Below, piece by piece: positions 1,137 to 20,213 of a stretch of DNA of 20,575 nt. Every line of letters starts with the position of its first letter. Position 1 is the stretch's first letter. This DNA comes from Myxococcota bacterium (GTDB taxonomy: Bacteria > Myxococcota > JACRCW01). Position numbers and translations under genes: made by a program. The stretch covers positions 1-20,575 of the forward strand of contig JBFMGU010000191.1 in NCBI GenBank assembly GCA_040752415.1, written 5' to 3'. The notes beneath the pieces are model-generated. The model saw only the letters and a program-made list of their open reading frames with translations. It had not been told where the DNA came from and made no database searches.

Positions 1137-2327
1137 CTACTTCTTCCGCTCCCGCGGCGGCGCCACGCGGAACACCGTGTACGGACCCCGTGACGCCAGC
1201 AACGTGGCCACCGGCTGAGCATCCACGCGCATCGGTTCCACCCACTGCTTGTGCAGCTTGCCCAGCGCCAGCCACAGCGCCTGTCCGCCCGGCTTCAGGA
1301 TCCGTCGCGACGTGGCCACCTCGTGCACCGCCACCTCCACGCCGGTGCCCGCGTTCAGCTCGCCCACCACGAGGTCGAATCGCTCGTCGGGGGAGACCGC
1401 CGCGGGCAGCCACACCGCTTCGCGCGGGGCCACCTCCACGCCGTGACGACGCGCATTGCGCTGCGTGTACGCAATGGCCATGAGGTCGCGGTCCGCCGTG
1501 GTCACGGAGGCACCCCGTCTGGCCAGCAGCACCGCGGGAGCGCCGTACCCCGCACGCATCACCAGCGCCGTGCCCCGGGGCGCGCGCGGCAGACATTCCA
1601 GCAGCAGCGGCATGCCCTCCTTCACGTGCGTCGGGTCCTCGCTGGCGTCGTGCGGGCGGTCCAGCACCAGCGTGTCGTCGCCGGCCTGGAAGGTGACCTC
1701 GTCACGTTTGTAGAGCCCGGCGTCCTCGTCGGCGGCGGCCACCGCGGAGAGCGCGTAGACGTGGTGTCGCTCCCCCGCCGCCACGCTGCGCAGCGGCCAC
1801 CCGCGCTCCCGGGCCAGCTCCTCCACCACGGGCATCAGGTCGCGGATGACCACCGCGCGGTACTCACCGCCCGCGCTGAGGCGCGCCGCCCCGCACTCCA
1901 TGAGATGCGCCACGCCCCGCTTCCCAATGCGCGCCGGGATGTTGCACAGCACCCAGTCAAACGGCCCCTCGCCCACGGCCAGGTAGCCCAGGCTGGGACG
2001 CGCGGTGACGTTGTGCAGACCGTGCTGCAGCGCGTTGGCCCGCGCGTACTGCACGGCGAGCAGGTCGCGGTCCACCAGCAACACCTGCGCCCCGGGATGC
2101 ACCGCGGCCACGGGCAACCCCAACGCCCCGTAGCCACACCCCATGTCCAGGATCCGCTGCGGCGTGCCCGACGGGAGGTTGTCGAGCAGCAACCGGGTCC
2201 CGTCATCAATACGATCCGCGCTGAACAACCCCCGCCCGGTCCGCAGCCTCAGCCGTTGGCCCAGGAGCTGGATGTCCAGCACGGTCTGGTCGAACGGCCG
2301 CAGGTCATCTGGTGAGGCAGTGATCAT
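1137..2327 (-). CDS. RsmC/MTS-like class I SAM-dependent methyltransferase with two tandem MTase domains
   Basis: N-domain has 'GLFSADRIDDGTRLLL', 'ILDMGCGYGALG', 'VDRDLLAVQYARAN' and 'FDWVLCNIP'. The second copy is degenerate: 'LVMRAGYG', 'ADRDLMAIAYTQRN', 'FDLVVGE', 'LKPGG'. Confidence 0.85.
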   Translation of the reverse strand: MITASPDDLRPFDQTVLDIQLLGQRLRLRTGRGLFSADRIDDGTRLLLDNLPSGTPQRILDMGCGYGALGLPVAAVHPGAQVLLVDRDLLAVQYARANALQHGLHNVTARPSLGYLAVGEGPFDWVLCNIPARIGKRGVAHLMECGAARLSAGGEYRAVVIRDLMPVVEELARERGWPLRSVAAGERHHVYALSAVAAADEDAGLYKRDEVTFQAGDDTLVLDRPHDASEDPTHVKEGMPLLLECLPRAPRGTALVMRAGYGAPAVLLARRGASVTTADRDLMAIAYTQRNARRHGVEVAPREAVWLPAAVSPDERFDLVVGELNAGTGVEVAVHEVATSRRILKPGGQALWLALGKLHKQWVEPMRVDAQPVATLLASRGPYTVFRVAPPRERKK

Positions 2328-3644: not shown

Positions 3645-4148
3645 GTGGAGAGACAAGACCGTCCGCGACGCGTGGTGCTGGTGGACATCGACGGGACCGT
3701 GGCCGACGTGAGCCACCGGCTGCACCACGTGCAGGGCCGCCCGCGCAACTGGAAGCGCTTCTTCGAGGGGATGGACCGGGATGAGCCCATCACGCGCGTG
3801 ATCGAGCACGTGCGCAAGCTGGCGCGCGACCATGACGTGGTCCTGTTCACCGGGCGGCCCGAGCCCTACCGCGCCCGCACCGAGGCCTGGCTGCGCGCGC
3901 ACAACGTCCCCTACACCCGCCTGCTGATGCGTCCCGCCGGGGACCGTCGCCCCGACTACGTCACCAAGCGGGAGATGCTGCGCCACGTCGACCATCAGCG
4001 CATTGCGCTGGCCATCGACGACCGCGACCCGGTCTGCGAGATGCTGCGCAACGAGGGTATCCGCGTCCTGGAGGTGCACAGCGACTTGGAGAACCAGGCC
4101 GTCAACGACGTGTACGCGGAGAGCCCGGAGGCGCCCGCCGCCCCCTGA
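3645..4148 (+). CDS. HAD-superfamily phosphatase resembling the polynucleotide kinase/3'-phosphatase (T4 PseT) C-terminal domain
   Basis: HAD motif I 'VLVDIDGTVAD', motif II 'FTGRPE', 'LLMRPAGDRRPD..TK' (motif III Lys) and motif IV 'IDDR'. Confidence 0.8.
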   Translation: MERQDRPRRVVLVDIDGTVADVSHRLHHVQGRPRNWKRFFEGMDRDEPITRVIEHVRKLARDHDVVLFTGRPEPYRARTEAWLRAHNVPYTRLLMRPAGDRRPDYVTKREMLRHVDHQRIALAIDDRDPVCEMLRNEGIRVLEVHSDLENQAVNDVYAESPEAPAAP

Positions 4149-4376
4149 GAGGACGTGCGACGACGAGGTGACATGCCTCCACTGGCGGCGCGCGCTTCGA
4201 CGCTGCGCCTTCACATGACTGGTCTGGCGGCGGCTGGCGTCGTCACGGACGTCAGCTGGAGACATGATTCGCGCTGCCGCGTTTGTCGGCTGCCGGAACG
4301 CTGGTTAGACCCATGCAGAATGTGGTCACGACGGGCGCTGCCGCATCCGTGGTCCGGGTCGTGACCGGAGCGAGCC

Positions 4377-4661
4377 ATGTCCGGTGAAACGCTGCTTCTG
4401 TGGCTGGTGGTAGGCCTGATTGCAGGCTGGCTGGCGTCCGAGGTGGTGGGCGGTGGCTACGGCCTGGTGGGGGACATCATCGTCGGGGTCGTGGGCGCGT
4501 TCATCGGCAGTGCGGTGTTCCGCGCGCTGGACGTTGGCGTGCCCTTCGAGGGCCTGGCCGGGACGATCTTCGTGGCCTTCATTGGCGCGTGCCTGCTGCT
4601 GTTGCTGCTGCGGCTGGTGCATTACGGCGGCACCCATCGGCGCGGAATACGCGGCGTCTAA
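4377..4661 (+). CDS. GlsB/YeaQ/YmgE (transglycosylase-associated) small membrane protein
   Basis: 'WLVVGLIAGWLA..VGGGYGLVGDIIVGVVGAFIG' and 'IFVAFIGACLLL'. GGAG lies upstream of the ATG. Confidence 0.9.
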   Translation: MSGETLLLWLVVGLIAGWLASEVVGGGYGLVGDIIVGVVGAFIGSAVFRALDVGVPFEGLAGTIFVAFIGACLLLLLLRLVHYGGTHRRGIRGV

Positions 4662-4698
4662 GGTCCAGGCAGGTGGGCTCGCACGACCACGCGCCGTT

Positions 4699-4757
4699 GC
4701 GCCGGTAGGCGGCGCGGAGCGCCGGGGGTGGACGGTGGCCGCACCGCGGGTGGCCAC
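4699..4757. terminator. Two GC-rich hairpins between convergent genes (possible terminator region)
   Basis: GCGCCG-gtagg-CGGCGC and GTGGCC-N11-GGCCAC lie between the stops at 4661 (+) and 4778 (-). There is no clear U-tract. Confidence 0.3.
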
Positions 4758-4777
4758 GGCGTGACGTCGCGCGGGGC

Positions 4778-7438
4778 TCAGCCGATGATGGACGCGGGCG
4801 TTGCCTCACGGAGCACGGTGGCGTGGCGCGCCAACAGCTCCCTGGCCAACTGCGCTTCCATGGGCGGGCCGTAGTGGAAGCCCTGGGCGAACTCGCAACC
4901 GAGCTTGCGCAGGTGCTGGTCGAGCGTGGCACTGGACACCCCCTCCGCCACCACCGCCAACCCCAGCGCGCGCGCCAGCTCCAAGGTGGACCAGAGAAGG
5001 GCCTCGCCCCGGGTGTCCGCGCCCGCCTCCACACCCGCAAGAAAAGACTTGTCCAGCTTGACGACGTCAATGGGGAGGTCTCTTAGCCGTGTTAGCGACG
5101 AATAGCCCGTGCCGAAGTCATCCAGCGCCAGACGCACACCGAGGCGCTTGAGGTCGCGCAGCCGGACCACGGCGGCGGCGTCCTCCAATGCCTGGCTCTC
5201 GGTGATCTCCAGGCACAGACCACCCGGGGGCAGCCCGCTGGCGTTCAACGCGTCTTCCACCCGCTGCACCAGGTCCGTCTCGCCCAGCTCCCGCGCGGAA
5301 ACGTTGACCGCCACGGTGAAGCTCCCCGCTCCGGGCACGTTCCGTCGCCACTCCGCGGCCTGGCAACAGGCTTGTTGCTGGACCCACCGCCCCATGCCCA
5401 CCACCAGGCGCGTGCGCTCCACCTCCGGCATGAAGGTGCCGGGAAGCAGCAGGCCGCGCACAGGGTGACGCCAGCGGATGAGCGCTTCAAACCCCACCAC
5501 GCTGCCGTCCGCCAGCCGCACCACGGGCTGGTAGTGCAGGACGAATTGGCCTTCGCGCAGCGCCGCGGGCACCTCGCTCTCGAGCTCCAGGCGGGAGACC
5601 ATCTCCGCGTGCAGGGTGTGGTCGTAACGTATCCAGCAGCCCTTGCCGCGCGCCTTGGCGGCGTACATCGCCACGTCGGCGTTCCGCACCACGGACGCGG
5701 CATCCTCCCCGGGCGCGTGCGAGAGCGCCACGCCCAGGCTCCCCGACACCGTGAGCGTCTTCTCCCCCAGCATGAACGGGCTCGAGAGCTTCGCCAGGAT
5801 GCGGTCCGCCATCCAGCACACCACCCGCTCGTCGGGCGGGTCGAGCAGCAGGACGGCAAACTCGTCCCCGCCCAGCCGCGCCACCAGGTCATCACGACGG
5901 ACCGCCGCGCGAATCCGGCTGGCCACCTCCACCAGGAGCGCATCACCCACGGGATGCCCAAGCGTGTCGTTGACCTGCTTGAAGCCGTCCAGGTCCAGCA
6001 GCAGCACCGCCACCGCGCCGGCGCGTCGGGTGGTGCAGGCGCGTTGCAGACGCTCGTTGAACAGCGCGCGGTTGGCCAGCGCCGTCAGCGGGTCGTGGAA
6101 GGCCTGGAACATGAGGTGGTCCTCGAGGCGACGCCGCTCCTGGACGTCCCGGCACGTCACCACCACCCCGTTCACGCCTTCCTTGTGCAGGCAGTTGTTG
6201 AGGAGCAGCTCGGTGTGTCGCCAGCCTCCGTCGCACTGGCGCCAGCGCACGCACACCGTCAGCGTTCCCTCGCGCTGCGGCACCAGGAGCGCGAACTTCT
6301 CCACGAAGACCGCGGTGTCCTCGGGGTGCAGCAGCTCCACCAGGCGCAGTCCCACCATGCTGTCCGGGGCGTACCCGAGGACACGTTGGGTCGAGCCGCT
6401 GTGGCAGAGGATGGTGGTGTCGTGGCCGAGCACGCAGATCACGTCGGAGCAGTGGTTCAGCAACGCGCGGAAACGGGCCTCCCTTGTCTCGGCCTGTTCG
6501 CGCAGGGCCAGGCCGTCCAACGTCGACGCCACCTGCGCACTGAGGTCCTGCAACGCTTCCCGGCACGCGGCGGACGGCGCTTCCGGCGTCTCCACCACCA
6601 GCAGGCCCACCACCTCACCGTGCGTCACCACCGGCTGGAGGCGGAGGTGCCACTGCAGGAGCGGGAGCCCCATGGCGTGAGCGTAACGCCGGGCTTCCGC
6701 GCCGCTCGCGGACTGGGGCCGGCCGCGCAGCACCGCGGACCAGGCGGCGCCCGGAGGCGTGCCCAGCGGCGAGAGCGCGTCAACTTCCCAGGCCCGCTCC
6801 CCCACCGCACCCGTCCACCGCCAGGTGCGGCTTGCAACCCAGGCCACCGACACACGACACCCCGCGTGCCCGTCCAACACCTCGAGCGCAGCGCGGGCCG
6901 CGACATGTTGGAGCGCGTCGCGGTTGTGCGCGGTGGCCAGGGCCACGCCCGCCCGGGTGAGCGCAGCCCGGCGCGCCAGGGAGCGGAGCAACAGCCGGCA
7001 CGCCACGCCCGAGGCCCACGCCGGTGCCAGCGTGGACACCACCCCGACGAGCAGGTGAGCAGCTCCCGGGACTTCCAGCGACGACGATGTTCCCGCGACC
7101 CCCGGCACCACCAGGCCCAGCGCGGAGCAGACCAGCGTGGGGAGCGAGATCCGCGGGCGCTGCTGCATGCCCTGCGTCATGGCCGCGGCGCCCAGGAGCG
7201 GGAGCGCGCTCCAGGGATCCGCAAGCCCGAAACCGATCACGACGAACGCCGCCACTTCCGCCGCCAGCGGCACCGGCCCCCGCCACGGTCTCCGCCATTC
7301 CCGTGCTCGCAGCAGCACCACGCACAGCACACCGAGCGCCACCTCGAGCCCGGCGGTGGCGTGGGTTGCGGTGGCACCGCCCAGCGCGTGGCCCAGGCAC
7401 CAGGCGGCACCCAGGAGCGTCAGTGCCAGGAGCAGCAT
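4778..7438 (-). CDS. Membrane-bound GAF-PAS-GGDEF-EAL diguanylate cyclase/phosphodiesterase
   Basis: ORF 4778..7585; ATG at 7438 (MLLLALTLL) precedes about 5-6 hydrophobic segments, and the true start is uncertain. GAF-like 'PVVTHGEVVGLLVV'; PAS 'RFRALLNHCSDVI...LGYAPDSMVG...DGGWRH...RDV'; GGDEF 'HDPLTALANR','DLDGFKQVNDTLGHPVGD','RRDDLVARLGGDEF'; EAL 'YQP','FEALIRW','VNVS','LEITE','LDDFGTGYSSL','KLDKSF','AEGV','QGF'. Confidence 0.95.
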   Translation of the reverse strand: MLLLALTLLGAAWCLGHALGGATATHATAGLEVALGVLCVVLLRAREWRRPWRGPVPLAAEVAAFVVIGFGLADPWSALPLLGAAAMTQGMQQRPRISLPTLVCSALGLVVPGVAGTSSSLEVPGAAHLLVGVVSTLAPAWASGVACRLLLRSLARRAALTRAGVALATAHNRDALQHVAARAALEVLDGHAGCRVSVAWVASRTWRWTGAVGERAWEVDALSPLGTPPGAAWSAVLRGRPQSASGAEARRYAHAMGLPLLQWHLRLQPVVTHGEVVGLLVVETPEAPSAACREALQDLSAQVASTLDGLALREQAETREARFRALLNHCSDVICVLGHDTTILCHSGSTQRVLGYAPDSMVGLRLVELLHPEDTAVFVEKFALLVPQREGTLTVCVRWRQCDGGWRHTELLLNNCLHKEGVNGVVVTCRDVQERRRLEDHLMFQAFHDPLTALANRALFNERLQRACTTRRAGAVAVLLLDLDGFKQVNDTLGHPVGDALLVEVASRIRAAVRRDDLVARLGGDEFAVLLLDPPDERVVCWMADRILAKLSSPFMLGEKTLTVSGSLGVALSHAPGEDAASVVRNADVAMYAAKARGKGCWIRYDHTLHAEMVSRLELESEVPAALREGQFVLHYQPVVRLADGSVVGFEALIRWRHPVRGLLLPGTFMPEVERTRLVVGMGRWVQQQACCQAAEWRRNVPGAGSFTVAVNVSARELGETDLVQRVEDALNASGLPPGGLCLEITESQALEDAAAVVRLRDLKRLGVRLALDDFGTGYSSLTRLRDLPIDVVKLDKSFLAGVEAGADTRGEALLWSTLELARALGLAVVAEGVSSATLDQHLRKLGCEFAQGFHYGPPMEAQLARELLARHATVLREATPASIIG

Positions 7439-7760
7439 GCGCAAGGGACGGAGGCCGGGTGTGTCCGGTGGCGTGGCAGCGTCCACCCGCGAAGCGCCAG
7501 CCTGGCGCGGGTCGCAGGGGGCCAGCACCGACGTGGCGCGCGTCGCGCGGTCCGGTTCTGAAGGGGAGGAAGTGGATCGACGCACGGTCTACCCGCGAGG
7601 TGGTTGGTTGCGCGCGCGCCCAGGGCAGCGCCGCAGGGAGAGATACGCAAAGGACACTGCTGCGACGCCGGTGACTCCTCGGGTGTCGTCGTGATCAGCG
7701 TGCGCGGGCTGCGTTGGCGCGACATCGCGACCGGGCGTCGCGGTGCAGCCGGCGTCACGT

Positions 7761-8708
7761 TCAGGGGACCGCACCCGCGTCCACCTGGTTCTTGCCCCGC
7801 GCCTTGGCGCGCAACAGCGCGCGGTCCGCGTGCGCCACCACGTCGCCGCTGGTCCTCCCGTGCGCCGGGTACGAGGCCACGCCCAGGCTCAGCGACGGGC
7901 GGACGGGCTCCGCGCCCTCCGGCACCCGCAAGCCCGACACGCGCTCACGCAGGCGGTGCGCCAAGGCCAGCGCGGCGGTGGTGTCGGCCTCCGGCATCAG
8001 GATCATGAACTCGTCGCCTCCCACGCGGAACCCCTGGTGGCGCGGCCCCAGCTCCGACCGGATGGCGCCGCCCACCTCACCCAGCAGACGGGAGCCCAGC
8101 TCTTGTCCCCGGGTGGCGTTGAGGTGTTGCAGGTTGTCCAGGTCCGCGCTGAGCAACCCGTAGCTGCGACCGTGCCGCTCACAACGCGCGTGCTCCTGGG
8201 CGAGCGCTTGGCGGAAGTGGCGGACGTTGTAGAGACCGGTGAGCTCATCCCGCAGGGCGTTGCTCTCCAGTTGCACCACCTGCCCGGCGGCCACGTGGAG
8301 GACCTGGCGCTGGATGTCCACCACCACGCGCCCGGTCTGCACGCGCTGTACCGACGCGCGCAGCGCCTGGGCCAGCAACGCCGGCGGCCAGCTCAGGTCC
8401 ACCACGGCGTCCGCGCCCAGGAGCGACACCGCTTCCGCGGCGCCCTCCCGTCGTGGATCCACGAACAGGACGAGCGGAATGGTGGTCTCCTCGGAGGCGT
8501 GCTGGACGCGCAGCGAGTCAGAGCCGGGCCACGGCTGGCACACCACGCCAATGCAGTCCGCGTCTCCTCCCGCAATCCGTTGCACCGCCTCCCGGGCCGC
8601 GCGCACGGTCCGGACGCTGAAACCCGGCAGCCCCTGCAGGCGGGGCTCCTCCGCCGCGCCCAGCACCAGCAATCTCAGATCGTCGCGCGCTGGCATCTCC
8701 GCCTCCAT
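7761..8708 (-). CDS. GGDEF dinucleotide cyclase with degenerate receiver-like N-terminus; Hypr-type signature (candidate 3',3'-cGAMP synthase)
   Basis: 'RDELTGLYNVR','ADLDNLQHLNATRGQELGSRLL','FRVGGDEF','SLSLGVA','ADRALLRAKARGKNQV'. Start is ATG 8708 or 8696 (GGAGG precedes 8696). The N-terminus has a REC-like pattern ('IPLVLF','LGADAVV') without the canonical acidic pocket. Confidence 0.9.
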   Translation of the reverse strand: MEAEMPARDDLRLLVLGAAEEPRLQGLPGFSVRTVRAAREAVQRIAGGDADCIGVVCQPWPGSDSLRVQHASEETTIPLVLFVDPRREGAAEAVSLLGADAVVDLSWPPALLAQALRASVQRVQTGRVVVDIQRQVLHVAAGQVVQLESNALRDELTGLYNVRHFRQALAQEHARCERHGRSYGLLSADLDNLQHLNATRGQELGSRLLGEVGGAIRSELGPRHQGFRVGGDEFMILMPEADTTAALALAHRLRERVSGLRVPEGAEPVRPSLSLGVASYPAHGRTSGDVVAHADRALLRAKARGKNQVDAGAVP

Positions 8709-8710
8709 CC

Positions 8711-10174
8711 TCAGGTGTCGTCCCACTTGCCAAGGCAACCGGTGTGCCGCAGCAGCACCAGGGTCATGTCGTCGTCCTGACGCGCCATGAAGGTCTGCAC
8801 GTCGTCGAGGATGTTGCGGACCGCCGCGGCGCCGGGCGCGCGGGCCATGCGCTTGAGCGCCTGGACCAGTCGTTCCTGGCCGTAGAACTCTCCCGCGGGG
8901 TTGGTGGCCTCGGTCACTCCGTCGGTGAAGAGCAGCGCCACGTCGCCCGGGTGGAGCGGAACGAACTTGTCCGGCACCGCTCCCTGCGGGTCATCCACCA
9001 CGCCCACCCAGCACCCCTCGGTGGGCACCTCCTCCACGTCGCCCGTGGCCGCCCGCAGGATGAGGACGTCCTGGTGCTTGCCCGCCATCCACATGCCGGA
9101 GTCGTCCAGGCGGATGACGGAGAGGGTCACGTAGCGACGCACGCCCAGGCGGGAGATGTTCTCGCGGATGGCGGCGTTGACCGCGCGCAGCACGTGGGAC
9201 GGGGACAATCCGGGGAAGTTGTTGACCACCGAGAAGATCCCCGTCTGCGTCATCATCATCACCAGCCCGGACTCCACGCCGTGGCCGGACACGTCACCAA
9301 TCCCCACCCATTTCTCACCCCACGACGTGCGGATGATGTCGTGGTAGTCGCCGCCCACCTCCGCGGCGGGATGCATGACCGAGGTGACGTCATAGGGTCC
9401 CAGCTTCTGGCTGCGCGGCAACAAGCCGGTCTGGATGTGCTTGGCCATCTCCATCTCGCCCCACAGCGCGTCACGGGCGGCCCGCAGCTCCGTCCGGGAC
9501 GCGTCCAGGTTGCGGTTGGTGCGCAGCAGCTCCTCCCGGGCCCAGAACTCGTTGGCGATCAGCAGGTGCTTCCGGTGGGTGATGGCCACCACGATCACCA
9601 CCGTGGCGACGAGGAAGAACAGGTTGTTGACCAGGAAGTCCGAGGCATGGCCCGGCGACCCGAGGCCGTTGACCAGGAGGTACATGGCGATGACGAGCAG
9701 GCCGTTGAGCGCGGAGTGGATGGCGCGCCACGGCAGGAACACGTTGACCGCGACGATCACCAGGTTGAGACCTGCATAGTAAGCGGAGTCGAAGCCCCCC
9801 AGGTCGCGGGTCATCAGCACGATCATCCCGCCCACCACCAGCGAGAAGACGTAACCGTGCAGGTGGGAAAGGCGACCCGGCTGCGTCCTGCGGATCACGA
9901 AGTACTGGGCCACCACCAGCAGCGTGGTGGCGGCGCGGTAGCCCCAGAAGCGCGGCAGCAGGCTGGTGGGCATGGTGAAGTAGTCAAGCACGCCGAACAG
10001 CGGGATCAGGCTGATTCCCAGCGCGGTGATGATGCGGGACCAGTCATGGATGATGCCGTTGAGGTGGAGGCCAAAACCCGAGGCCTCGTGCTCAACCGCC
10101 GCGGCAGCGGCCCGCGTGGGCGCGGGGTGGGCGGTGACATGTGCAAGTCCGTCAACGGCCATGGCTTCCCTCAT
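8711..10174 (-). CDS. Multi-TM sensor (PhcS-like) fused to SpoIIE/RsbU-type PP2C Ser/Thr phosphatase (SiaA-like)
   Basis: About 6 hydrophobic helices including 'FGVLDYFTMP', 'SAYYAGLNLVIV....LPW' and 'NNLFFLVATVVIV', then a coiled coil. PP2C motifs are intact: 'EMEMAKHIQTGLLP','EVGGDYHD','IGDVSGHG','LFTDGVTEA','QDDDMTLV'. Start is 10174 or 10162. Confidence 0.92.
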   Translation of the reverse strand: MREAMAVDGLAHVTAHPAPTRAAAAAVEHEASGFGLHLNGIIHDWSRIITALGISLIPLFGVLDYFTMPTSLLPRFWGYRAATTLLVVAQYFVIRRTQPGRLSHLHGYVFSLVVGGMIVLMTRDLGGFDSAYYAGLNLVIVAVNVFLPWRAIHSALNGLLVIAMYLLVNGLGSPGHASDFLVNNLFFLVATVVIVVAITHRKHLLIANEFWAREELLRTNRNLDASRTELRAARDALWGEMEMAKHIQTGLLPRSQKLGPYDVTSVMHPAAEVGGDYHDIIRTSWGEKWVGIGDVSGHGVESGLVMMMTQTGIFSVVNNFPGLSPSHVLRAVNAAIRENISRLGVRRYVTLSVIRLDDSGMWMAGKHQDVLILRAATGDVEEVPTEGCWVGVVDDPQGAVPDKFVPLHPGDVALLFTDGVTEATNPAGEFYGQERLVQALKRMARAPGAAAVRNILDDVQTFMARQDDDMTLVLLRHTGCLGKWDDT

Positions 10175-10178
10175 GAGC

Positions 10179-11570
10179 TCATTCTCGTCGGGTGACCTGC
10201 AGGAACATCTGTGCGCCCGTCTCCTCGAAGGTGATGCGCGCGTCCGCGCCGGGCAGTCCCTCGGTCAGCGCCAGGAACTCCTGCTCCGTGCGGTAGTAGA
10301 GGACCCAGTCCATCCAGTATTCCATGTACAGGCGCGTGGGATTTCCGACGTGGAAGTTCCCCACCACCAGCGTCCCGCCCGGCTCCAGCAACTCGTAGAG
10401 GCGGGCCAGCACCGTGCGCGCCACCGGCGGCGTCAGGTAGTCGAACAGGCCCATGGAATAGATGAAGCGGAACCGCCCCCAGAGGTCACGCAGGTTGGGC
10501 GTCTTGAGCATGGTGCGCACGGACTCATTGACCACGTTGACGCGCAGCTGGAACGCGCCCATCCGCTCCAGCTCACGGATGCCCTCCCGTGCCGCCGCCA
10601 ATGCCATGGGGTCCTGGTCCAGCAACGTGCACTCCAGGCGGTGGACGTCGCGCGCCACCAGCACCACGTCCCGCAGCTCCCAGGCGGGGCCGCACGCCAC
10701 GGACATGAAACGGAAGGGCTCGTCGCCGCGCTGCGGGAAGCGCTCCTGCACCTGGCGCAGCAACCCGGCAATGAGCGCGCGACGGTTGCGCACCGCCTGC
10801 GCCGCCGCGGAATCCAGCGGGTGCTTGTGCAGCAGCCGGTTGAACACCGTGGTGCCCTGGTAGGCGTTCTCGTAGATCATCTGCATCATCTGGGAGTCCC
10901 CGGCATAACCGCGCGGCTTGAGGTTGGTGCGGGCCAGGAACGCGGAACCGAGGATGAACTCCCAAACGTGACGTCGGAAATAGAAGCCGTGCCGCTCGTG
11001 ATCTTCCTTGTCGAAGCCCGCGGTCACTTCCTTGAGGGACTCCAGGGACTGGTCGAGGAAACGCACGAAGGCGGGCCCCTCCGCACGGATGATGGCCCGC
11101 TGTGCCGCGTCCCGGACCACCGGCGCCTCCAGCGCGCACAACCGGTCCTGCTCCGAGAAGAACCGTTTGTAGACGGACAGGTCGAACGTGGTGTTGGCGG
11201 TGTACTCGCGGAAAGCCGGTTGGATGCGTTCCCGCTGCTGCAGGAACAGGGGAAGGTTGTGGAAGGACCGCTTGATGTCCACGAACCGCTTCTCCCGGAA
11301 GAGCGCGCGGAAGTCGTAGACGTCATCCAGGAACACCAGCCGACCCGTGAAGCCTTCCGGTGCGTCCGGCTCCAGCCGACACCGGCTGAACCGGAAGGTC
11401 TGGCTGTCCACCTCCACGTCCAGCGCGTCGAACTGCCGCGGGGGCTCCGGCGGTGAAGCGCCCAGGGCCACGTACACCGAGACGTTGGACGCGTAGCCCA
11501 GCGTCACGCCGCAGGGACGGCCTTCCTGGAACAGGGTCCCGCGCAGGGTGGTGGTGCTGGTGGCGGCCAC
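10179..11570 (-). CDS. phcB: PhcB-like class I SAM-dependent methyltransferase (3-hydroxy fatty acid methyl ester signal synthase family)
   Basis: 463 aa with 'KPRGYAGD..MM..IY', 'AQAVRNR', SAM motif 'MSVACGPAWE', 'LLDQD', 'FIYSMGLFDYL', 'PGGTLVVGNF' and 'MEYWMDWVLYYR'. Motif order and length match Ralstonia PhcB as recalled; not confirmed by search. The symbol denotes family similarity only. Confidence 0.75.
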   Translation of the reverse strand: MAATSTTTLRGTLFQEGRPCGVTLGYASNVSVYVALGASPPEPPRQFDALDVEVDSQTFRFSRCRLEPDAPEGFTGRLVFLDDVYDFRALFREKRFVDIKRSFHNLPLFLQQRERIQPAFREYTANTTFDLSVYKRFFSEQDRLCALEAPVVRDAAQRAIIRAEGPAFVRFLDQSLESLKEVTAGFDKEDHERHGFYFRRHVWEFILGSAFLARTNLKPRGYAGDSQMMQMIYENAYQGTTVFNRLLHKHPLDSAAAQAVRNRRALIAGLLRQVQERFPQRGDEPFRFMSVACGPAWELRDVVLVARDVHRLECTLLDQDPMALAAAREGIRELERMGAFQLRVNVVNESVRTMLKTPNLRDLWGRFRFIYSMGLFDYLTPPVARTVLARLYELLEPGGTLVVGNFHVGNPTRLYMEYWMDWVLYYRTEQEFLALTEGLPGADARITFEETGAQMFLQVTRRE

Positions 11571-11573
11571 GTC

Positions 11574-11942
11574 TCATTCCCCACGCAGCTCAATCCGGCG
11601 ATCCAGCGTCTCGAAGACCTTCATCGCGGAGAAGCTGAGCTGCTGCCATTTCAGACCGGAGCGGTACACCATGCGTACGCGCGCAAGGCCGGTGCGCGCG
11701 GACTCCATCAAACGCACCAGGGGCGTGAACGTGGAGGAGTTCATGTAGTCCAGCGCCCGGAAGTCCAGCACCAACAGCTTTCCGCTGGCCTCCGCGGAAG
11801 CCAGGGCCCGGTCCAGGATGGGCGCCAGGAACCGCCCGGGCTCCCGCTCGTTGCTGCGCCCCGTCCACCGCAAGTGCACGGTGTCCGTGGTCTCCTCCAC
11901 CTCGATCTGCAGGGTCTTCTCGGTAAAGACGCTTCGTTCCAT
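11574..11942 (-). CDS. SiaC/DUF1987-like STAS-fold phosphoacceptor (anti-anti-sigma-like) protein
   Basis: 'LRWTGRSNEREPGRFLAP.L', 'LVLDFRALDYMNSSTF..L' and 'MVY....WQ'. This parallels the SiaC G.S..E...F..P / YxNTSS phospho-loop. GGAG upstream. Confidence 0.75.
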   Translation of the reverse strand: MERSVFTEKTLQIEVEETTDTVHLRWTGRSNEREPGRFLAPILDRALASAEASGKLLVLDFRALDYMNSSTFTPLVRLMESARTGLARVRMVYRSGLKWQQLSFSAMKVFETLDRRIELRGE

Positions 11943-11964
11943 GGGTCAGCTCCCGGAAAAGGCA

Positions 11965-12444
11965 CTAACGCCGGTGCACGGCGGAGATGGCCAGCACGCC
12001 CGACTCGTCGACGTAGAAGTCCAGGATGGCCTGCCCCTCGTAGGCAATCCGGACCAGTCCCAGGCCACTGCCGCCTTCGCGCTGCGGTTGGGTGGACAGC
12101 AGCTTGAGCCGGTCCACGTAGGCTTCGAACGGATCCTGGAACCCGCGGATCCACTGAATGGTGTCGTCCAGGTGGCGCAGCTGATCGTCGTCGGGGGAGA
12201 CCGGGCTCTTCACCTCGATGGTCACATCGCCTTCGCCAATCCTCATGCCCAGGTCGATCTTGTCGGAGCTGGAGAAGCGCCCGTACTTCACGGCGTTTTC
12301 GAGCAGCTCCTGGGTCACCATCGACAACGCATAGGCGGCATCCGGTCCCAGTCCCTCGCGCCCAAAGAAGTCGACGGAGACATCCCAGATGTCCTTGATG
12401 GTGCACCAATTCGGTTCCAGCTTGAGCGCCAGTTCCTGGCTCAT
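11965..12444 (-). CDS. Stand-alone HATPase_c Ser/Thr kinase (SiaB/RsbW-like)
   Basis: ATG 12444 (MSQELAL) with GGAG upstream. N-box 'VTQELLENAVKYG', G-box 'GGSGLGLVRIAYEG'. There is no HisKA/H-box. Confidence 0.8.
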   Translation of the reverse strand: MSQELALKLEPNWCTIKDIWDVSVDFFGREGLGPDAAYALSMVTQELLENAVKYGRFSSSDKIDLGMRIGEGDVTIEVKSPVSPDDDQLRHLDDTIQWIRGFQDPFEAYVDRLKLLSTQPQREGGSGLGLVRIAYEGQAILDFYVDESGVLAISAVHRR

Positions 12445-12623
12445 GGTGTCTTCACTCCGGGCGTGATTGCGCGTGGCATTTCCCCCCGTCCACGCGCCGG
12501 CGTGGCTTTCAACCACGGGCGAGCGCGGTTCCTTCCCGGAGTTCCCGGTTGCCGCGCACAGGATGCAACGAGACGTTCTGCGGGTTGCAGTCCAACAGCT
12601 GGCATGAACGCGGGAGCACGGTT

Positions 12624-13022
12624 GTGAAGCAACTCACCCTGGGAGACCTCTCCATCGACGTCGACACCGCCGCCCCCGGCGCCATCCACCTGCGCTGGCG
12701 CGGGCGGAGCAACAACCAGAATCCGGCGACAACCCTGCAGCCCTTCCTGGAGTTGCAGCTGGCGCACGCGCGGCAGCGGGGGGTGCGCGTGGAGATGCAC
12801 TTCGAGGAGCTGACGTACTTCAACTCCTCCACCATCGCCGTGCTGCTTCACGGGATACAGGAAGCCCACGCCCGCACCGTCCCCCTGGTCCTCCACTATG
12901 ACCGTCGACTGCGCTGGCAGGCCCACAACTTCGAGGCGCTGCGCGTGCTGCAATCCACGGACGACCTGCTGCGCCTGGATGGCGGCGCAGGTGAAATCAA
13001 CCCGACGCCACGGCGAAGTTGA
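12624..13022 (+). CDS. Second SiaC/DUF1987-like STAS-fold protein, divergently transcribed
   Basis: GTG 12624 after GGGAG. 'IHLRWRGRSNNQNPATTLQPFL','MHFEELTYFNSSTIAVL','LHYDRRLRWQAHNFEALRVL' align motif for motif with 11574..11942. Confidence 0.8.
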   Translation: MKQLTLGDLSIDVDTAAPGAIHLRWRGRSNNQNPATTLQPFLELQLAHARQRGVRVEMHFEELTYFNSSTIAVLLHGIQEAHARTVPLVLHYDRRLRWQAHNFEALRVLQSTDDLLRLDGGAGEINPTPRRS

Positions 13023-13028
13023 GACGAA

Positions 13029-13352
13029 TCACCGCGGCGGCGGGTCCGTACTCTCGGAGGGCGTGACGTACTGACGCAGGTCCGCCAGCAGGTTCTCGAT
13101 GGCGTCGGGGCGGCAGAACAATTTCAGGGCCACCTGGAGCTCGGGGACCATCCGTTCCACGTCGGACATTTGGATGTCCTGGGGGCTGAGACCGCTCCTT
13201 GCCACGGCCCGACCCAGGAGCATCTCGACGTTGAGCGCACTCAAGTAGCGGAGCAATACCTCGCGCAGGCCCGCCAGCGCCACGCTGCTTGCGCGCTGCG
13301 CTCCGACGGACGAGCCTGGACGTGTGGTGTGTGCTGCGGACGGCATGGCCAT
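13029..13352 (-). CDS. Small hypothetical helical protein (~107 aa)
   Basis: The 3' half of ORF 13029..13574 is protein-like ('LREVLLRYLSALNVEMLLGRAVARSGLSPQDI...LQVALKLFC'). Start is ATG 13352 or 13346; the upstream extension looks non-coding. Confidence 0.6.
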   Translation of the reverse strand: MAMPSAAHTTRPGSSVGAQRASSVALAGLREVLLRYLSALNVEMLLGRAVARSGLSPQDIQMSDVERMVPELQVALKLFCRPDAIENLLADLRQYVTPSESTDPPPR

Positions 13353-14250
13353 GTTGCGCTCGTCACCCGGGACGCGTCGAAGGCGCTCCTTTCGCGCTTG
13401 GTGCTCACGACCCGCCAGCGTTGGTGGAGTCGCGTGGGAGCGCCGCGGGTGCAGAGCGCATGCCAGCGCCTGGTTCGTCGTACGGCTCGCGCGAAATGCA
13501 CGCCCCAACTGGGGCGGCGTGCCCGTGCCACCGGGTTGGTGCTTGAGGCAATGTGGCCCGCCCGCCTCGCACAACGACCCGTGCGTGTGTCCGACGCGCC
13601 ACGAACCCCCTGTGACGTTGGCGTTTCACGACGAGGCTGCCAAACAGCTGGCGAACGTCCCACCGGTGAAGGCCAGTGCCGGCGAAGCCACCGTCGTGGT
13701 TCCAAGCACCGGCGCGTCCGGCCTCGGCCCTGCGTCAAAGCGCTGTTCACGCGCAGCGTGAGGACTCCGCTCGGAGGGGACACAGCGGATGCCACGCGGG
13801 AGAGCTGCGCGTTCCTGGCCCCGGCGCCAGCTCCGCCGCGCGGCGTCCGTGCGAACAACGCTTGGAGCTCCCACGCGTATCAGGTCCAGGGATGCCCTCG
13901 GCGGGCTCACCCGCCGCTGCGATTGGGGCACCTGTGAATGGGGGCGGGCCACCTAGACATCGTATTCCTTCGTTGCCATTAGACTTTGGAGCGGGCCGCT
14001 ACCTCCTTGCGCATGCGGATTGTCATCACAACAGGGCGCGGCTCTCATGCTGACGCCTCAACCCGAGGACGGTACGACAGCAGCGCGGTGCCGCTCTCTT
14101 GGGTCCCAAAAGAGCCGCACCCAATCTCATAGGCAGGGACTTCGCGACTGGAGGGCCCTCGTCGGGTGGGGCGTCCGGATGAGGAGCCACACCCTGACAA
14201 TCACCCGCGCGAATAACGCCTCCTGGCCGCTGCTGGCAGATCGAATCCGT

Positions 14251-14757
14251 CTACGCAGCAGTGCCCTGCCTGCGACGCAATCCACGCGCGTGGTTGACTG
14301 CAGCCTGGACCTCCACGCTCGCCAGGTTGACGTTCTCGGTCGCGCGAAGTTGGGCGCACACCCAATCCGCCGCGTGGTCCACGCGGTCAAAGACCTCTTC
14401 AGGCAGGAGACGTTTGGTCAATGCGTTGAGCGTCGTGGCGATGCTGCGAACCGTGGCCGCACGGAATCCGTTGCCCTCATAGACCACGGCCACGGCGGCC
14501 AGGCGGTCCGCATAGAGGCGCCGCCCCTCCATGAGCTCCGCGCGGGCCTCAGCCGTTGGAAGCGGGGAGTTCCGTTCCACCACCACCACCATCCCCACCT
14601 TCCTGCCCTTCCATGACGACGTACCTCGGGCAATCACCGTGTGCATGCGACGCAGATCCGCTGTGCTTCCACCGCGAAGAATGAGGAGGAGCAGGCCATT
14701 CCACGTCGCGACGCAATGGGCGTCGTCATCTTCAAGGACATTGAGAGCGTCAACCAT
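14251..14757 (-). CDS. Hypothetical protein, probable STAS/SEC14-like alpha/beta fold
   Basis: GGAGG RBS before ATG 14757. The pattern 'GMVVVVE..SPLP..EAR.EL...LAAVAVVYEG.GFRAA.VRSI...VFD.VD.AADW' resembles myxobacterial STAS/SEC14-like small proteins (from recall). Confidence 0.65.
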   Translation of the reverse strand: MVDALNVLEDDDAHCVATWNGLLLLILRGGSTADLRRMHTVIARGTSSWKGRKVGMVVVVERNSPLPTAEARAELMEGRRLYADRLAAVAVVYEGNGFRAATVRSIATTLNALTKRLLPEEVFDRVDHAADWVCAQLRATENVNLASVEVQAAVNHARGLRRRQGTAA

Positions 14758-14999: not shown

Positions 15000-15431
15000 T
15001 CACGGCGAGGCCACCGTGACCTGCGGCAGTCCGGCCGCCGCGCACGCATCCATGGCGCCCACCAGCAGCTCGTAGGGCACCTCGTCGTCGGGCAGCACGC
15101 GGACCGGCGCGGCATGGGGCATCCCCGCGCGCAGCTCCTCCAATTCCACGCGCAATCCCTTGAGGTCGCGCGCCTCCCGACGGGCGCCGTTCCACCGCAG
15201 GCCAAAGTTCTCGCGTGAGACCCGCAGCTCCAACTCGGCGGGAGGGGAACCTTCCGAGGGACCGGTGCCTCCGGCCGCGGCGGTGAGCGTTCCCAACTGC
15301 GTCCACACCGCCGTCATCAGCAGGAAGGCAATGAGACTGGACAGCAGGTCAATGCACGGGACCAGGTTGATGGTGGCGTCCAGGGACCTGCCCCGGGAAC
15401 GCCCCGGCTCGACGGGCGCGCTGCCTGCCAT
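15000..15431 (-). CDS. exbD: ExbD/TolR family biopolymer transporter subunit (AglS/AglQ-like)
   Basis: 'INLVPCIDLLSSLIAFLLMTAVW' TM segment with conserved Asp; C-terminal 'VRVLPDDEVPYELLVGAMDAC..AGLPQVTV'. Confidence 0.88.
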   Translation of the reverse strand: MAGSAPVEPGRSRGRSLDATINLVPCIDLLSSLIAFLLMTAVWTQLGTLTAAAGGTGPSEGSPPAELELRVSRENFGLRWNGARREARDLKGLRVELEELRAGMPHAAPVRVLPDDEVPYELLVGAMDACAAAGLPQVTVASP

Positions 15432-16202: not shown

Positions 16203-17456
<1,254 letters not shown>

Positions 17457-17561
17457 CGCAACGCATCCAGCGTCGGCGGAACCTAGAACACCGGGAGGAT
17501 GGGCAAGGCAGGAAGCACTGTTAGCGTTCCCTTCGCCTGGCCTGCCCAGAGGAGCATCCGG

Positions 17562-20213
17562 ATGAAGCGCTTTCCCGTCGTCATGGCATTGGCAGCGTTG
17601 TCCACCGCGGCCCTTCCCGCGCTGGCGGAGCACGCGGAGCTGACCAGTGCCGCGCTGGAGGCCCGTGCCCGGGAGGCGCTCCTGGCCACGCCGCGCGTGG
17701 GCATCTACGTCCCCATCCCGCGCGAGTACGCGCCGCCGCCGGGCCAGACCCGTGCCATCTACGCGCCGGGCGGACCGCCGGTGCCCATCTTCATCAACCG
17801 CAACGGCGGCACCTACTACCGCGGCCAGGACAACTCCGGCGCCAACATCTCCTCCATCGTCCCCGGGCAGAGCGCGTACGTGGACGCGTTTGGCGGCAGC
17901 AACACCACCTGGAACGCCATGATGGACTGCATCCGGGAGCAGTTCGCACGCTTCAACGTGGAGGTCACCGACGTGGAGCCCAGCCGCGCGCACGTGGAGT
18001 GCGTGGTGGGCGGCAGCCCCGACCAGCTGGGCCTTCCCAGCGGCGTGGGCGGCGTGGCGCCGATCGATCCCTACGGTTGCGACGTGATCGACAGCGCCAT
18101 CGTCTACGTGTTTGCCGACGTGATCGGGAACAGCGCGCAGGTGCTGTGCGAGGTGGCGGCGCAGGAGATTGCCCACTCCTTCTCGCTGGACCATGAGCTG
18201 TTGTGCCAGGACCCCATGACGTACCTGAACGGGTGCGGCGCCAAGAGCTTCCAGAACGTGGACGCGCAGTGCGGCGAGTACCAGACGCGCGACTGCATCT
18301 GTAACCGCGACAGCCAGAACTCCGTGCAGATCATGCTGGAGAAGCTGGGCCCCTCGACGGGCGGCGGCTCCAGCAGCAGCGGCGGTCCCACCGACACCGT
18401 GCCGCCCACCATCCAGCTCACCAGCCCCACCACCGGCTCGTCGCTGCCGGCCAACAGCACCATCGAGGTGGTGGCGGAAGCCAACGACGACCAGGGCGTG
18501 CAGGACATCGAGCTCATCTGGCCCTACACCGGCAACATCTTCCCCTGCCCCATGCAGAGCCAGAACGTGAACTGCGCGCGCACCGGCAACACCGCCACGT
18601 GGCTGTTGCGGGTGGGCACCGGCACGCGTTCCTTCCAGGCGCGCGCGCGGGATGCGGCGGGCAATGAGACGTTGAGCGCGGCGGTGAGCATCACGCTGGG
18701 CGACGGGACGCCTCCGCCCGAGGACAACAACCCGCCCGTGGTCTCGGTGGTCAGCCCCGACGACGGCGCGGTGCTCCCCGCCAACAGCACCATCGAGGTG
18801 GTGGCCAACGCTTCCGACGACGTGGCGCTGGACGCGGTGGAGCTGGTGTGGCCCTACACCAATGAGGCCTTTGGCTGCCCCAGCCAGCGCCAGGGCGTCA
18901 CCTGCACGCAGAACGGCAGCACCTTCACCTGGTCGCTGCCGGTGGGCACGGGGGAGCGGCCCTTCCAGATCCGCGCCACCGACCAGGCCGGGCACCTCTC
19001 CATCACGCCGCAGCGCACCATCTACCTCGACGACGGCTCGGGCCCGCCGGCGGACACGCAGGATCCGCAGGTGATCATCAACCGCCCCGCCGACGGAGCC
19101 ACGCTGTCCGCGGGCACGCTGGAGGTGGCGGCCACGGTGACCGACAACGTGGGCGTGGAGAGCGTGGAGCTGCTGTGGAACGACGGCGCCAGCACCTATC
19201 CCTGCCCCACCAACCAGGGCGCCACCTGCTCTTCGCTCGGGACCAGCTACGTGTGGTCCATCACCGTGCCCACCGGCGAGTACGGCTTCACGGTGCGTGC
19301 GCGTGACGCCGCGGGCAACGAGAAGGTGACCACGCGGTACTCGGTCACCGTCACCGACGGACCGGTCACCAGCGACGACGACACCAGCGAGCCCAACGAC
19401 TCCTTTGGCGAGGCCACGCCGGTGGGCTGCGGCGCGTCGCTCTCGCTCATCTCGCTGCCGGGCAACCCCGACTGGTTCTCGCTCACGGTGGCGGAGGGCA
19501 CGCAGCTGCAGCTGGACGCGGACTCCACGGAGCAGGCCAACCTGGAGATGCGCGTGGCCACCGGCCCCAACACCGCGGACCTCATTGCGCTGGCCAGCGG
19601 CCCGGCCCTCGACGAGCGGATCATCCTCAACGCGCCCGCCGCGGCCCTGGGCATCCTGGTGCAGCAGACCGGCGGCGGCAGGGGCGCGTACACGCTGCGG
19701 GTGGCCTGCAACGGCGGAGGAAACAACAACGGCGGCCAGGACGACAACGCCGAGCCCAACAACACGCCCGCGCAGGCGGCGGTGATGTTCTGCGGTCAGA
19801 CCCAGAGCTACGTGCTGCAGGACGAGGACCACTTCAAGGTGCAGGTGCGTGAGGGCGACGAGCTGGTGGCCTCGGTGCAGGCCAGCGGCGAGGTGCAGCT
19901 GGAGATCCTGGACGCCAACGGCGCGGCCCTCCCCGACGCCACCGCCACGGGTGCGAACACCTCGGTCAGTGCGCCCAACCTGGTCGCGGGAGCGCACCAC
20001 ATCCGCGTGGCGCCGACGGTGGGGGCCGGGATGAGCTACTCGCTGACCATTGCGTGCAATCCCGCGGGCGGCGCCGGCGGCGACGTCGACGAGGAGCCGG
20101 AGGCGCGCAGCGTGCTGTCGTGCGTCCACGCCAGCACGGGTTCGCGTGGTTTCTCACCGCTGCTCGCATTCGGTCTGGTGTTGCTGGTGCGTCACGCCCG
20201 TCGTCGTCGCTGA
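17562..20213 (+). CDS. Secreted metzincin-like protein (QExxHxxxxxH) with 3 Ig-like (Big) repeats, 2 PPC-like domains and a MYXO-CTERM-like anchor
   Basis: GAGGAG RBS, signal peptide 'MKRFPVVMALAALSTAALPALA'. 'AQEIAHSFSLDH' plus Met-turn-like 'DPMTY'. Three repeats of 'D..PP.....P..G..L......V.A...D..GV..VEL.W...ARA.D.AG'. Two 'D..EPN.....A..V.CG' PPC-like units. Tail 'SCVHA...LLAFGLVLLVRHARRRR'. Confidence 0.88.
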   Translation: MKRFPVVMALAALSTAALPALAEHAELTSAALEARAREALLATPRVGIYVPIPREYAPPPGQTRAIYAPGGPPVPIFINRNGGTYYRGQDNSGANISSIVPGQSAYVDAFGGSNTTWNAMMDCIREQFARFNVEVTDVEPSRAHVECVVGGSPDQLGLPSGVGGVAPIDPYGCDVIDSAIVYVFADVIGNSAQVLCEVAAQEIAHSFSLDHELLCQDPMTYLNGCGAKSFQNVDAQCGEYQTRDCICNRDSQNSVQIMLEKLGPSTGGGSSSSGGPTDTVPPTIQLTSPTTGSSLPANSTIEVVAEANDDQGVQDIELIWPYTGNIFPCPMQSQNVNCARTGNTATWLLRVGTGTRSFQARARDAAGNETLSAAVSITLGDGTPPPEDNNPPVVSVVSPDDGAVLPANSTIEVVANASDDVALDAVELVWPYTNEAFGCPSQRQGVTCTQNGSTFTWSLPVGTGERPFQIRATDQAGHLSITPQRTIYLDDGSGPPADTQDPQVIINRPADGATLSAGTLEVAATVTDNVGVESVELLWNDGASTYPCPTNQGATCSSLGTSYVWSITVPTGEYGFTVRARDAAGNEKVTTRYSVTVTDGPVTSDDDTSEPNDSFGEATPVGCGASLSLISLPGNPDWFSLTVAEGTQLQLDADSTEQANLEMRVATGPNTADLIALASGPALDERIILNAPAAALGILVQQTGGGRGAYTLRVACNGGGNNNGGQDDNAEPNNTPAQAAVMFCGQTQSYVLQDEDHFKVQVREGDELVASVQASGEVQLEILDANGAALPDATATGANTSVSAPNLVAGAHHIRVAPTVGAGMSYSLTIACNPAGGAGGDVDEEPEARSVLSCVHASTGSRGFSPLLAFGLVLLVRHARRRR

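Follow-up and report, generated by a model that had tools for sequence, protein, structure and literature searches.

The question raised by a 20,575-nucleotide contig of a Myxococcota bacterium (JBFMGU010000191.1, assembly GCA_040752415.1), which was analysed in its entirety and is referred to here as the window, is whether a compact run of genes within it encodes a self-signalling circuit, in which a relative of the quorum-sensing synthase PhcB supplies a signal to a membrane-bound PP2C phosphatase and, through a serine phosphorylation switch, to a downstream effector. An earlier note, made from the sequence alone, had read positions 4778-13022 as a merger of Phc-type methyl-ester signalling with a partner switch of the SiaABCD kind ending in cyclic dinucleotide output. 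The conserved unit at this locus is a cassette of four genes, encoding a SpoIIAB-type kinase, a STAS protein, a PhcB-family methyltransferase and a sensor-PP2C, and it is a real, multi-phylum and apparently undescribed rewiring of known parts. The GGDEF gene that follows the four genes in the window is an accessory output outside this core. The core genes are as follows:

11965-12444, reverse strand: serine kinase of the anti-sigma type (SpoIIAB/RsbW/SiaB superfamily), 159 residues, core gene 1 (HATPase_c_2, E 7e-7)
11574-11942, reverse strand: single-domain STAS phosphoprotein, type 1 (co-transcribed), predicted acceptor Ser69, core gene 2
10179-11570, reverse strand: PhcB-family class I S-adenosylmethionine (SAM) methyltransferase, 463 residues, core gene 3 (Methyltransf_25)
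8711-10174, reverse strand: PhcS-type membrane sensor (residues ~35-215), coiled linker and PP2C/SpoIIE phosphatase, 487 residues, core gene 4 (SpoIIE, E 4e-35)

Conservation and distribution of the four-gene cassette

The seven open reading frames described by the earlier note were all found open in the window sequence, with a GC content at third codon positions of 0.86-0.91, and their layout was as it had reported, with five co-oriented genes separated by 22, 3, 4 and 2 bp, a further 175 bp before a GGDEF-EAL gene, and a second STAS gene lying divergently at 12624-13022, with a GTG start, 179 bp off the kinase gene. The core genes are each single-copy in the source genome (11.0 Mb, 96.8% complete), where each STAS gene has the other as its sole paralogue.

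Gene order was compared across 112 close and 14 distant loci, compiled from 60 handle regions and 80 genome loci minus 14 duplicates; the genome loci were the best 80 of 233, and the range of phyla is therefore a lower bound. Neighbours were counted by tblastn, since gene calling missed small genes in AT-rich loci, and the denominators for close loci comprise those with enough flanking sequence. The kinase gene lay at most 1.3 kb upstream of the methyltransferase gene in 104/107 close loci, and the type 1 STAS gene was directly upstream in 88/109 and nearby in 87/91, while a PhcS-type membrane domain came directly after the methyltransferase in 101/105 and PP2C after it in 94/100. All four core genes were adjacent in 73 of 97 close loci, and kinase, methyltransferase and sensor-PP2C occurred together in 90 of 97 when the STAS gene was allowed to lie elsewhere, a recurrence that argues against chance and bears out the expectation that the arrangement would be conserved beyond the window. 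At least six phyla carry the cassette (Myxococcota, Thermodesulfobacteriota, Spirochaetota, Pseudomonadota, Fidelibacterota and Calditrichota), and Nitrospirota and Bacteroidota have partial loci; it is not peculiar to myxobacteria. Cultured carriers of all four core genes include Anaeromyxobacter oryzae Red232 (L166), A. oryzisoli SG63 (L131) and Aquisalimonas sp. APHAB1-3 (L153), and within the phylum sample a close methyltransferase was present in 44 of 401 genomes (E <1e-100; count includes the unpublished G195, which enters no other claim).

None of the 14 distant loci, which hold same-phylum paralogues of the methyltransferase, carried the kinase, the STAS gene or the cassette-type PP2C, and in 12 of them a PhcS-type membrane domain was encoded next to the methyltransferase. 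Eight such sensor genes were scanned, and in these the domain was fused to a hybrid histidine kinase, with one protein also ending in a PP2C domain. Genes for sensor-histidine kinase-receiver-PP2C hybrids follow distant methyltransferase paralogues at L084:1093-4032 and L090:9595-12204, and hybrids of this kind may represent a step between the wiring through a kinase and that through a phosphatase.

In a literature search covering listings and abstract openings, mostly outside the subscription journals, no paper linked PhcB with PP2C, STAS or a partner switch, which agrees with the earlier note, to which no description of such a hybrid was known. Where a 2026 review speaks of PhcB it is for Ralstonia alone, and the words PP2C, partner and myxobacter do not appear in its accessible text (PMC13220807).

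The sensor-phosphatase

The gene next to canonical phcB homologues encodes a membrane domain and, around residue 230, a His box, matching the position of H230 in PhcS as given in the available text of PMC11960443. A PhcS-type profile was built from 52 of 61 membrane domains encoded directly 3' of canonical phcB homologues, and among the 56,183 open reading frames of the source genome its sole significant match was the window PP2C protein (E 5.9e-12; next match 0.39). The same profile scored the membrane domains of the cassette at 25-61 bits in 78 of 78 cases, a usable domain having been cut from 78 of 99 cassette loci, and scored shuffled sequences at no more than 5.1 bits; profile-profile comparison (hhalign) of the two domains gave 97.9%. 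Judged by these similarities, the membrane domain of the PP2C protein is homologous to that of PhcS, in line with the receptor-phosphatase proposed in the earlier note. Hydropathy analysis placed five segments of the protein over threshold, and the PP2C residues D276, D294, D418, D468 and D469 were invariant across aligned loci.

The Pfam scan gave the PhcS-type membrane domain no family name, and the Atlas placed it near MASE- and PilS-type sensors, under the naming bar. Among the extra sensors near close loci, the domain is fused variously to histidine kinase, PP2C, GGDEF-EAL, adenylate cyclase and HD domains, as expected for a ligand-binding module, and it is an unnamed and promiscuous sensor domain. 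Individual examples pair it with adenylate/guanylate cyclase, PAS-HD or PAS-GGDEF-EAL (L095:10224-11567; L118:4267-6192; L142:11877-15086; L144:11950-14400). Extra PhcS-type sensor genes, many of them encoding histidine kinases, were present near 36 of 112 close loci (41 listed, from which four main receptors that had been misclassified and one that was the sole receptor were subtracted) and near 0 of 46 same-phylum handle loci. The supposed lack of a His-Asp relay consequently applies to the window locus, where HisKA and Response_reg had no match among the seven proteins (Pfam), but cannot be extended to those related loci.

The methyltransferase and the PhcB family

Close homologues of the window methyltransferase share 47-63% identity with it and often bear the JGI name 3-hydroxypalmitic acid methyl ester synthase. 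The named PhcB was reached via a Paraburkholderia plasmid locus and thence Cupriavidus proteins, including PhcB of C. necator N-1, to which the window protein is 31% identical over residues 187-460 (E 3e-34; both have 463 residues). Profile-profile comparison, with 111 against 60 sequences, gave a probability of 100 in a global alignment over 448 columns, and 39 columns were at least 90% conserved and identical between the cassette clade and canonical PhcB. In an unrooted tree of 75 selected rows, based on the last 300 residues, the canonical PhcB clade (14 rows) had support of 100/100 and the cassette clade (37 rows) formed its own branch, with other groups between. On these alignments the methyltransferase belongs to the PhcB family, as the earlier note had suggested, without orthology to canonical Ralstonia/Cupriavidus PhcB. 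A correlation between methyltransferase and sensor distances (r 0.75-0.91) was set aside as evidence because kin share both.

Elsewhere in the family, short methyltransferases without a sensor neighbour occur in same-phylum genomes (L087, L088), on a long branch beside the cassette clade. A conjugative plasmid in Paraburkholderia graminis carries a phcB-phcS-like locus that includes two response regulators (L171:5440-9815, NZ_CP024936.1), and canonical-type methyltransferases are also present in Massilia, Pseudoduganella and Janthinobacterium.

The kinase and STAS partner switch

The kinase retained its N-box and glycine loop (E46, N50, G129 and R132) in 105/105 aligned loci, and Ser69 of the type 1 STAS protein was kept in 106/106, aligning with T68, named as the phospho-acceptor of SiaC in the accessible text of 10.1101/674879. 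Kinase, STAS protein and phosphatase thus keep the catalytic and phospho-acceptor residues anticipated for a working switch. The type 1 STAS model (predicted local distance difference test score, pLDDT, 95) matched SpoIIAA, RsbV, TM1442 and SiaC about equally (template modelling score, TM, 0.60-0.67), and a search of solved structures with the single STAS sequence gave no match.

Membership of the SiaABCD system, to which the earlier note had likened the switch, was rejected, the window proteins falling below the NCBIfam cut-offs for SiaA, SiaB, SiaC and SiaD. The window kinase matched the slr1658 superfamily (E 1e-12, 47.8 bits) and the window STAS protein the slr1659 superfamily (27.5 bits), each under a cut-off of 100, and these superfamilies were the best NCBIfam matches of 42/42 kinases and 51/51 type 1 STAS homologues, respectively. 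The SiaB model matched 7 of the 42 kinase homologues and the SiaC model 4 of the 51 STAS homologues, all weakly and with the window proteins unmatched; a SiaC family search of the source genome found nothing at E 0.01, and the Pfam matches of the window proteins to SiaC/STAS domains were weak (E 9e-4 and 0.015, under the cut-off). By family resemblance the switch is at least as much like SpoIIAA/RsbV and slr1658/slr1659 as like Sia, and 'Sia-like' describes an analogy of design and not membership, because slr1658/slr1659 match best and the Sia models only weakly and in few homologues.

A second, more divergent kinase is paired with a type 2 STAS gene beside the cassette at L033, L039 and L052. 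In the genome G001, contigs C36 and C67 (L305, L306) carry a divergent kinase with type 2 STAS and a PP2C without PhcS-type domain, with no methyltransferase found. The kinase/STAS switch seems to be modular, and could run on other inputs, since G001 has GGDEF, kinase, STAS and PP2C genes without a methyltransferase having been found.

The GGDEF protein as a putative accessory output

Two further genes of the window bear on the output of the switch:

7761-8708, reverse strand: pseudo-receiver, helical stalk and GGDEF domain, Hypr-like Ser206, accessory output (GGDEF, E 2e-34)
12624-13022, forward strand: single-domain STAS phosphoprotein, type 2 (divergent), predicted acceptor Ser68, 33% identical to type 1

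The N-terminal part of the GGDEF protein defines a small subfamily, in which a receiver-like domain without the Asp that ends strand 3 is followed by a conserved helical stalk. Nine subfamily genes were first found in 8 of 401 genomes, with nine candidates scored per genome so that some may have been missed, and five more came from 363 genomes of one order, which overlapped the first sample, after the profile had been built. Five of the 14 orthologues lie inside a cassette (the window, G011, G320, G400 and G469) and six lie directly before a detached cassette-type STAS gene (G342, G307, G451 twice, G452 and G468); the five late-found orthologues all belong to one or other of these groups, and since several of the genomes are congeners the cases are not independent. 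Among the 12 subfamily genomes, all had a cassette-type STAS gene and ten a close methyltransferase, with a distant one only in G468 and none found in G001. The earlier inclusion of the GGDEF gene in the unit is accordingly sustained in part, in that the subfamily travels with the STAS family, but not as regards the core.

Where a detached GGDEF orthologue has a STAS gene next to it, that STAS gene scored higher on the type 2 profile (6/6 cases), which points to the divergent STAS gene as the counterpart in the window, and on this linkage type 2 STAS is the likeliest partner of the GGDEF protein. In SiaCD, the stalk of the SiaD dimer is bound by unphosphorylated SiaC according to the available text of PMC8457831. 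Outside the GGDEF subfamily, no stalk-like motif was detected below E 0.009 in other neighbouring effectors.

Hypr cyclases are distinguished, in the accessible text of PMC6456294, by Ser or Thr at GacA position 348 together with a GGDE[F/Y] motif. The window protein has both features, Ser206 aligning with Ser348 of Geobacter GacA (PDB 6d9m) and its GGDEF motif occupying residues 230-234, and it retains the metal-binding Asp189, Asn197 and GGDEF. The cross-dimer Arg is replaced by Val162, a weak test because the Arg is also missing in 3/6 canonical controls. Across the subfamily the guanine-specifying Asp is absent from 14/14 members (Ser in nine, Thr in one, Gly in two, Ala in one and Asn in one), the GGDEF motif is intact in 13/14, and the conserved Lys position is Lys or Arg in 12/14, the Lys being intact in G320, G307 and G469. 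All 14 members show an F-to-L change and lack the Asp after the Asn, whereas the source genome's three ordinary Hypr-type genes keep both the Phe and the Asp. From these residues, the window GGDEF protein is probably not an ordinary synthase of cyclic di-GMP (c-di-GMP), and it is conceivable, at somewhat short of an even chance, that the subfamily makes cyclic GMP-AMP (cGAMP) or mixed products.

Three further GGDEF genes of the source genome have Ser at the Hypr position and active sites that are otherwise intact (G000:C301:41544-42977, C416:267-2258 and C157:44052-45134). A GEMM-I (c-di-GMP-I) riboswitch is located upstream of an open reading frame for a Ser/Thr protein kinase (G000:C354:1112-1205, equivalent to L298:1112-1205, reverse strand; 47.4 bits), and has an A directly before its GGCAA segment, a position that may mark cGAMP-selective variants. 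The three Hypr-type genes and the riboswitch make cGAMP signalling plausible in the source organism.

A proposed circuit and its alternatives

The interpretation favoured, with modest confidence, is a Phc-type self-signalling (quorum-like) circuit in which the receptor output has changed from histidine kinase to PP2C and the effector is variable, being in the window a pseudo-receiver GGDEF protein. Its biochemical steps are inferred from the observed gene content, gene order, homologies, residue conservation and linkage. By analogy with its family, the methyltransferase would transfer a methyl group from SAM to a small hydrophobic acid, and the product, most likely a fatty-acid methyl ester, would leave the cell. 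The PhcS-type membrane domain would bind this product and thereby switch the PP2C to which it is fused, activation being likelier than inhibition. The opposing activities of PP2C and SpoIIAB-type kinase would set the phosphorylation of the STAS serine, as their intact residues and the established chemistry of partner switches suggest, and the unphosphorylated STAS protein would bind an effector that varies between lineages. In some Myxococcota, including the source organism, this effector would be a dimer of the pseudo-receiver-stalk-GGDEF protein, whose stalk is, from gene linkage, probably bound by the type 2 STAS protein in the manner of SiaC and SiaD.

A number of observations weigh against this circuit, the first of them concerning its input. 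The pairwise alignment of the methyltransferase to PhcB is limited to residues 187-460, and residues 1-95 and 96-186, each taken alone, gave no significant profile-profile alignment to PhcB. The cassette clade differs in a fixed manner from canonical PhcB at 24 columns, and its separate branch (support 100/99) places the methyltransferase far from canonical PhcB, for which reason the methyl ester is a putative product. Most of the 39 shared columns are also found in the two short homologues without a sensor neighbour, and the invariant motifs therefore do not prove a signalling role. On the output side, no effector is conserved together with the four core genes. The GGDEF gene was rejected as a core gene since it lies directly after PP2C in just 1 of 94 other loci (G011, same family), any GGDEF gene being nearby in 16/70; the subfamily occurs in 7 of the 44 cassette genomes of the phylum sample, and three of the 14 orthologues (G085 twice, G001) have no cassette gene within ~6-8 kb. 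The combination in G001 described above, of switch and GGDEF without a methyltransferase found, points in the same direction. In addition, the window GGDEF protein has lost the I-site, has Gln194, Ala198 and Gln202 where GacA retains Lys, Asp and His, respectively, and may be weak or inactive.

A more specific form of the circuit, as a widespread quorum-sensing architecture in which a PhcB-type autoinducer acts through the receptor phosphatase and serine switch, and in which, in several Myxococcota lineages, unphosphorylated type 2 STAS activates a new Hypr-like GGDEF subfamily so that cell density governs 3',3'-cGAMP or mixed cyclic dinucleotides without a His-Asp step, is rather doubtful as a whole.

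An improbable alternative is a closed feedback loop, in which the STAS protein has the methyltransferase as its main target, through the N-terminal barrel, and tunes signal synthesis, with output through other PhcS-type receptors and the GGDEF protein secondary. The methyltransferase model (pLDDT 91) consists of an N-terminal barrel (~1-95), a helical part and a Rossmann domain, and the barrel is PilZ-like (TM 0.57-0.64 to PilZ clusters) without the RxxxR motif. In Ralstonia, the substitution R22C in the N-terminal part of PhcB lowers the signal, and PhcQ has been proposed as a modulator of PhcB, in the part of PMC6989110 that is accessible. A loop of this type would also be consistent with the position of type 1 STAS directly upstream of the methyltransferase, with the further sensors near 36 of the close loci, and with the absence of an effector conserved alongside the core. 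However, no extra sensor accompanies the same-phylum handle loci and the source genome has one PhcS-type domain only, so that the switch there must have another output or none; the adjacent type 1 STAS gene is missing in 21/109 loci, and type 2 STAS is linked to GGDEF independently of the cassette.

It is similarly unlikely that the circuit is non-diffusible, with the methyltransferase modifying a lipid of the membrane, a metabolite inside the cell or the receptor protein itself and the membrane domain reading that state as a private lipid signal or an adaptation. The low identity to PhcB, the fixed differences and the existence of receptor-less short homologues leave room for this, as do the closest solved structure to the class I methyltransferase domain, the uncharacterised 3ocj (Z 20.3, root-mean-square deviation 3.1, 255 residues aligned), and the features that the membrane domain shares with MASE-type sensors. 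Against this, the pairing of synthase and then sensor is kept on both the canonical PhcB branch and the cassette branch, and the fold matches of the methyltransferase are mostly small-molecule methyltransferases. Assignment as a CheR-type protein methylase was rejected, the matches being marginal (E 0.008-0.03).

The least probable alternative is a classical anti-sigma switch, in which a sigma factor from another locus is held by the kinase until the signal frees it and the GGDEF gene is a co-regulated passenger: the STAS model does best match SpoIIAA and RsbV in complexes with anti-sigma kinases and the best solved-structure matches of the kinase profile include SpoIIAB (E ~0.04), but no sigma-70 family match was found in the 24/35 unlabelled recurrent neighbour clusters and 58/75 downstream genes scanned, GGDEF and STAS genes adjoin each other away from the cassette, and the closest named families, slr1658 and slr1659, are numbered beside the GGDEF gene slr1657 in the available text of PMC10124867.

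If the Phc-type circuit with a phosphatase output is correct, quorum sensing would gain a new wiring, in which the receptor is a phosphatase that drives a partner switch, and Phc-type chemistry would no longer be limited to two genera of betaproteobacteria but would reach myxobacteria, spirochaetes, sulfate reducers and other groups. To our knowledge, quorum-sensing receptors are histidine kinases or transcription factors, and few of the input signals of STAS partner switches are known. The cassette supplies a candidate input for these switches and could likewise act as an upstream activator of Hypr-like cyclases.

Neighbouring genes of the window

The GGDEF-EAL gene downstream of the accessory GGDEF gene had been counted by the earlier note as following on from the unit:

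4778-7585, reverse strand: membrane-GAF-PAS-GGDEF-EAL protein, motifs intact, neighbour (Pfam)

Its start codon is uncertain, the codon model placing the start at 7444. Searches of other fetched loci gave no match to its N-terminal 320 residues, and a profile search detected no PhcS-type membrane domain in the protein; its membership of the unit was rejected for want of a homologue of this N-terminal part, and the gene is, from these comparisons, probably a bystander. No RNA family reached its gathering score in the window, no sigma-70-type promoters or terminators were detected within 4300-14300, and no motif resembling the sigma-54 consensus was seen in the two intergenic regions.

The rest of the window includes a double-domain MTS methyltransferase (1137-2327, reverse strand), a HAD/PNKP-type phosphatase (3645-4148, forward strand) and a lone ExbD/TolR gene (15000-15431, reverse strand). 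Two small open reading frames on the reverse strand (13029-13349 and 14251-14757) had no Pfam or NCBIfam match, the second having three paralogues elsewhere in the source genome. At 16203-20213 (forward strand) are a Ser-rich protein with TSP-3 repeats and a secreted-looking protein with immunoglobulin-like (Ig) repeats and PPC, both typical myxobacterial surface proteins; the N-terminal part of the latter is presumably metalloprotease-like.

Comparison with known systems

The cassette resembles the Phc system of Ralstonia and Cupriavidus in having a PhcB-family methyltransferase of the same length, followed (after 4 bp in the cassette) by a gene with a PhcS-type membrane domain. It differs in that the sensor is fused to PP2C, whereas the Phc sensor is of the HisKA-HATPase type, in that the locus has kinase and STAS genes upstream in place of PhcR/PhcQ receivers, and in the separate branch of its methyltransferase. 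In the text available of PMC5995829, the phc system is described as intact only in Cupriavidus and Ralstonia.

With SiaABCD of Pseudomonas aeruginosa the likeness is one of architecture only, comprising a membrane PP2C, an anti-sigma-type kinase, a STAS-fold phosphoprotein and a stalked GGDEF protein, with the cassette acceptor aligning with SiaC T68 at the start of helix 2. The window proteins score far under the NCBIfam cut-offs of the Sia families (SiaA 61/700 bits, SiaD 119/290), and unlike SiaABCD the cassette has a Ser acceptor, a PhcS-type sensor, a synthase gene and two STAS paralogues, with a pseudo-receiver domain and Ser replacing the guanine-specifying Asp in the window GGDEF protein.

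The switches formed by SpoIIE/RsbU, SpoIIAA/RsbV and SpoIIAB/RsbW share with the cassette the same three folds, a Ser acceptor, a GHKL Ser kinase and a PP2C with metal-binding Asp. The cassette departs from them in that no sigma factor was seen among the neighbours scanned (24/35 clusters and 58/75 downstream genes), though one could be encoded at another site, and in its input, a putative self-made small molecule. The slr1658/slr1659 superfamilies of Synechocystis, whose numbering next to slr1657 was mentioned above, supply the best NCBIfam matches of the cassette kinases and type 1 STAS proteins, with the window proteins remaining under the cut-offs, and we know of no methyltransferase or PhcS-type sensor in that system.

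The Hypr enzymes GacA of Geobacter and GacB of Myxococcus xanthus resemble the window GGDEF protein in having Asn at position 339 and Ser at position 348 (GacA numbering), GGDEF and not GGEEF, and a residue other than Arg at 304. The GGDEF subfamily is set apart from them by its F-to-L change and missing Asp after the Asn, the window copy additionally by the absence of the conserved Lys and His, and its control is predicted to be exerted via STAS binding, in contrast to the receiver or cAMP input of the Hypr enzymes.

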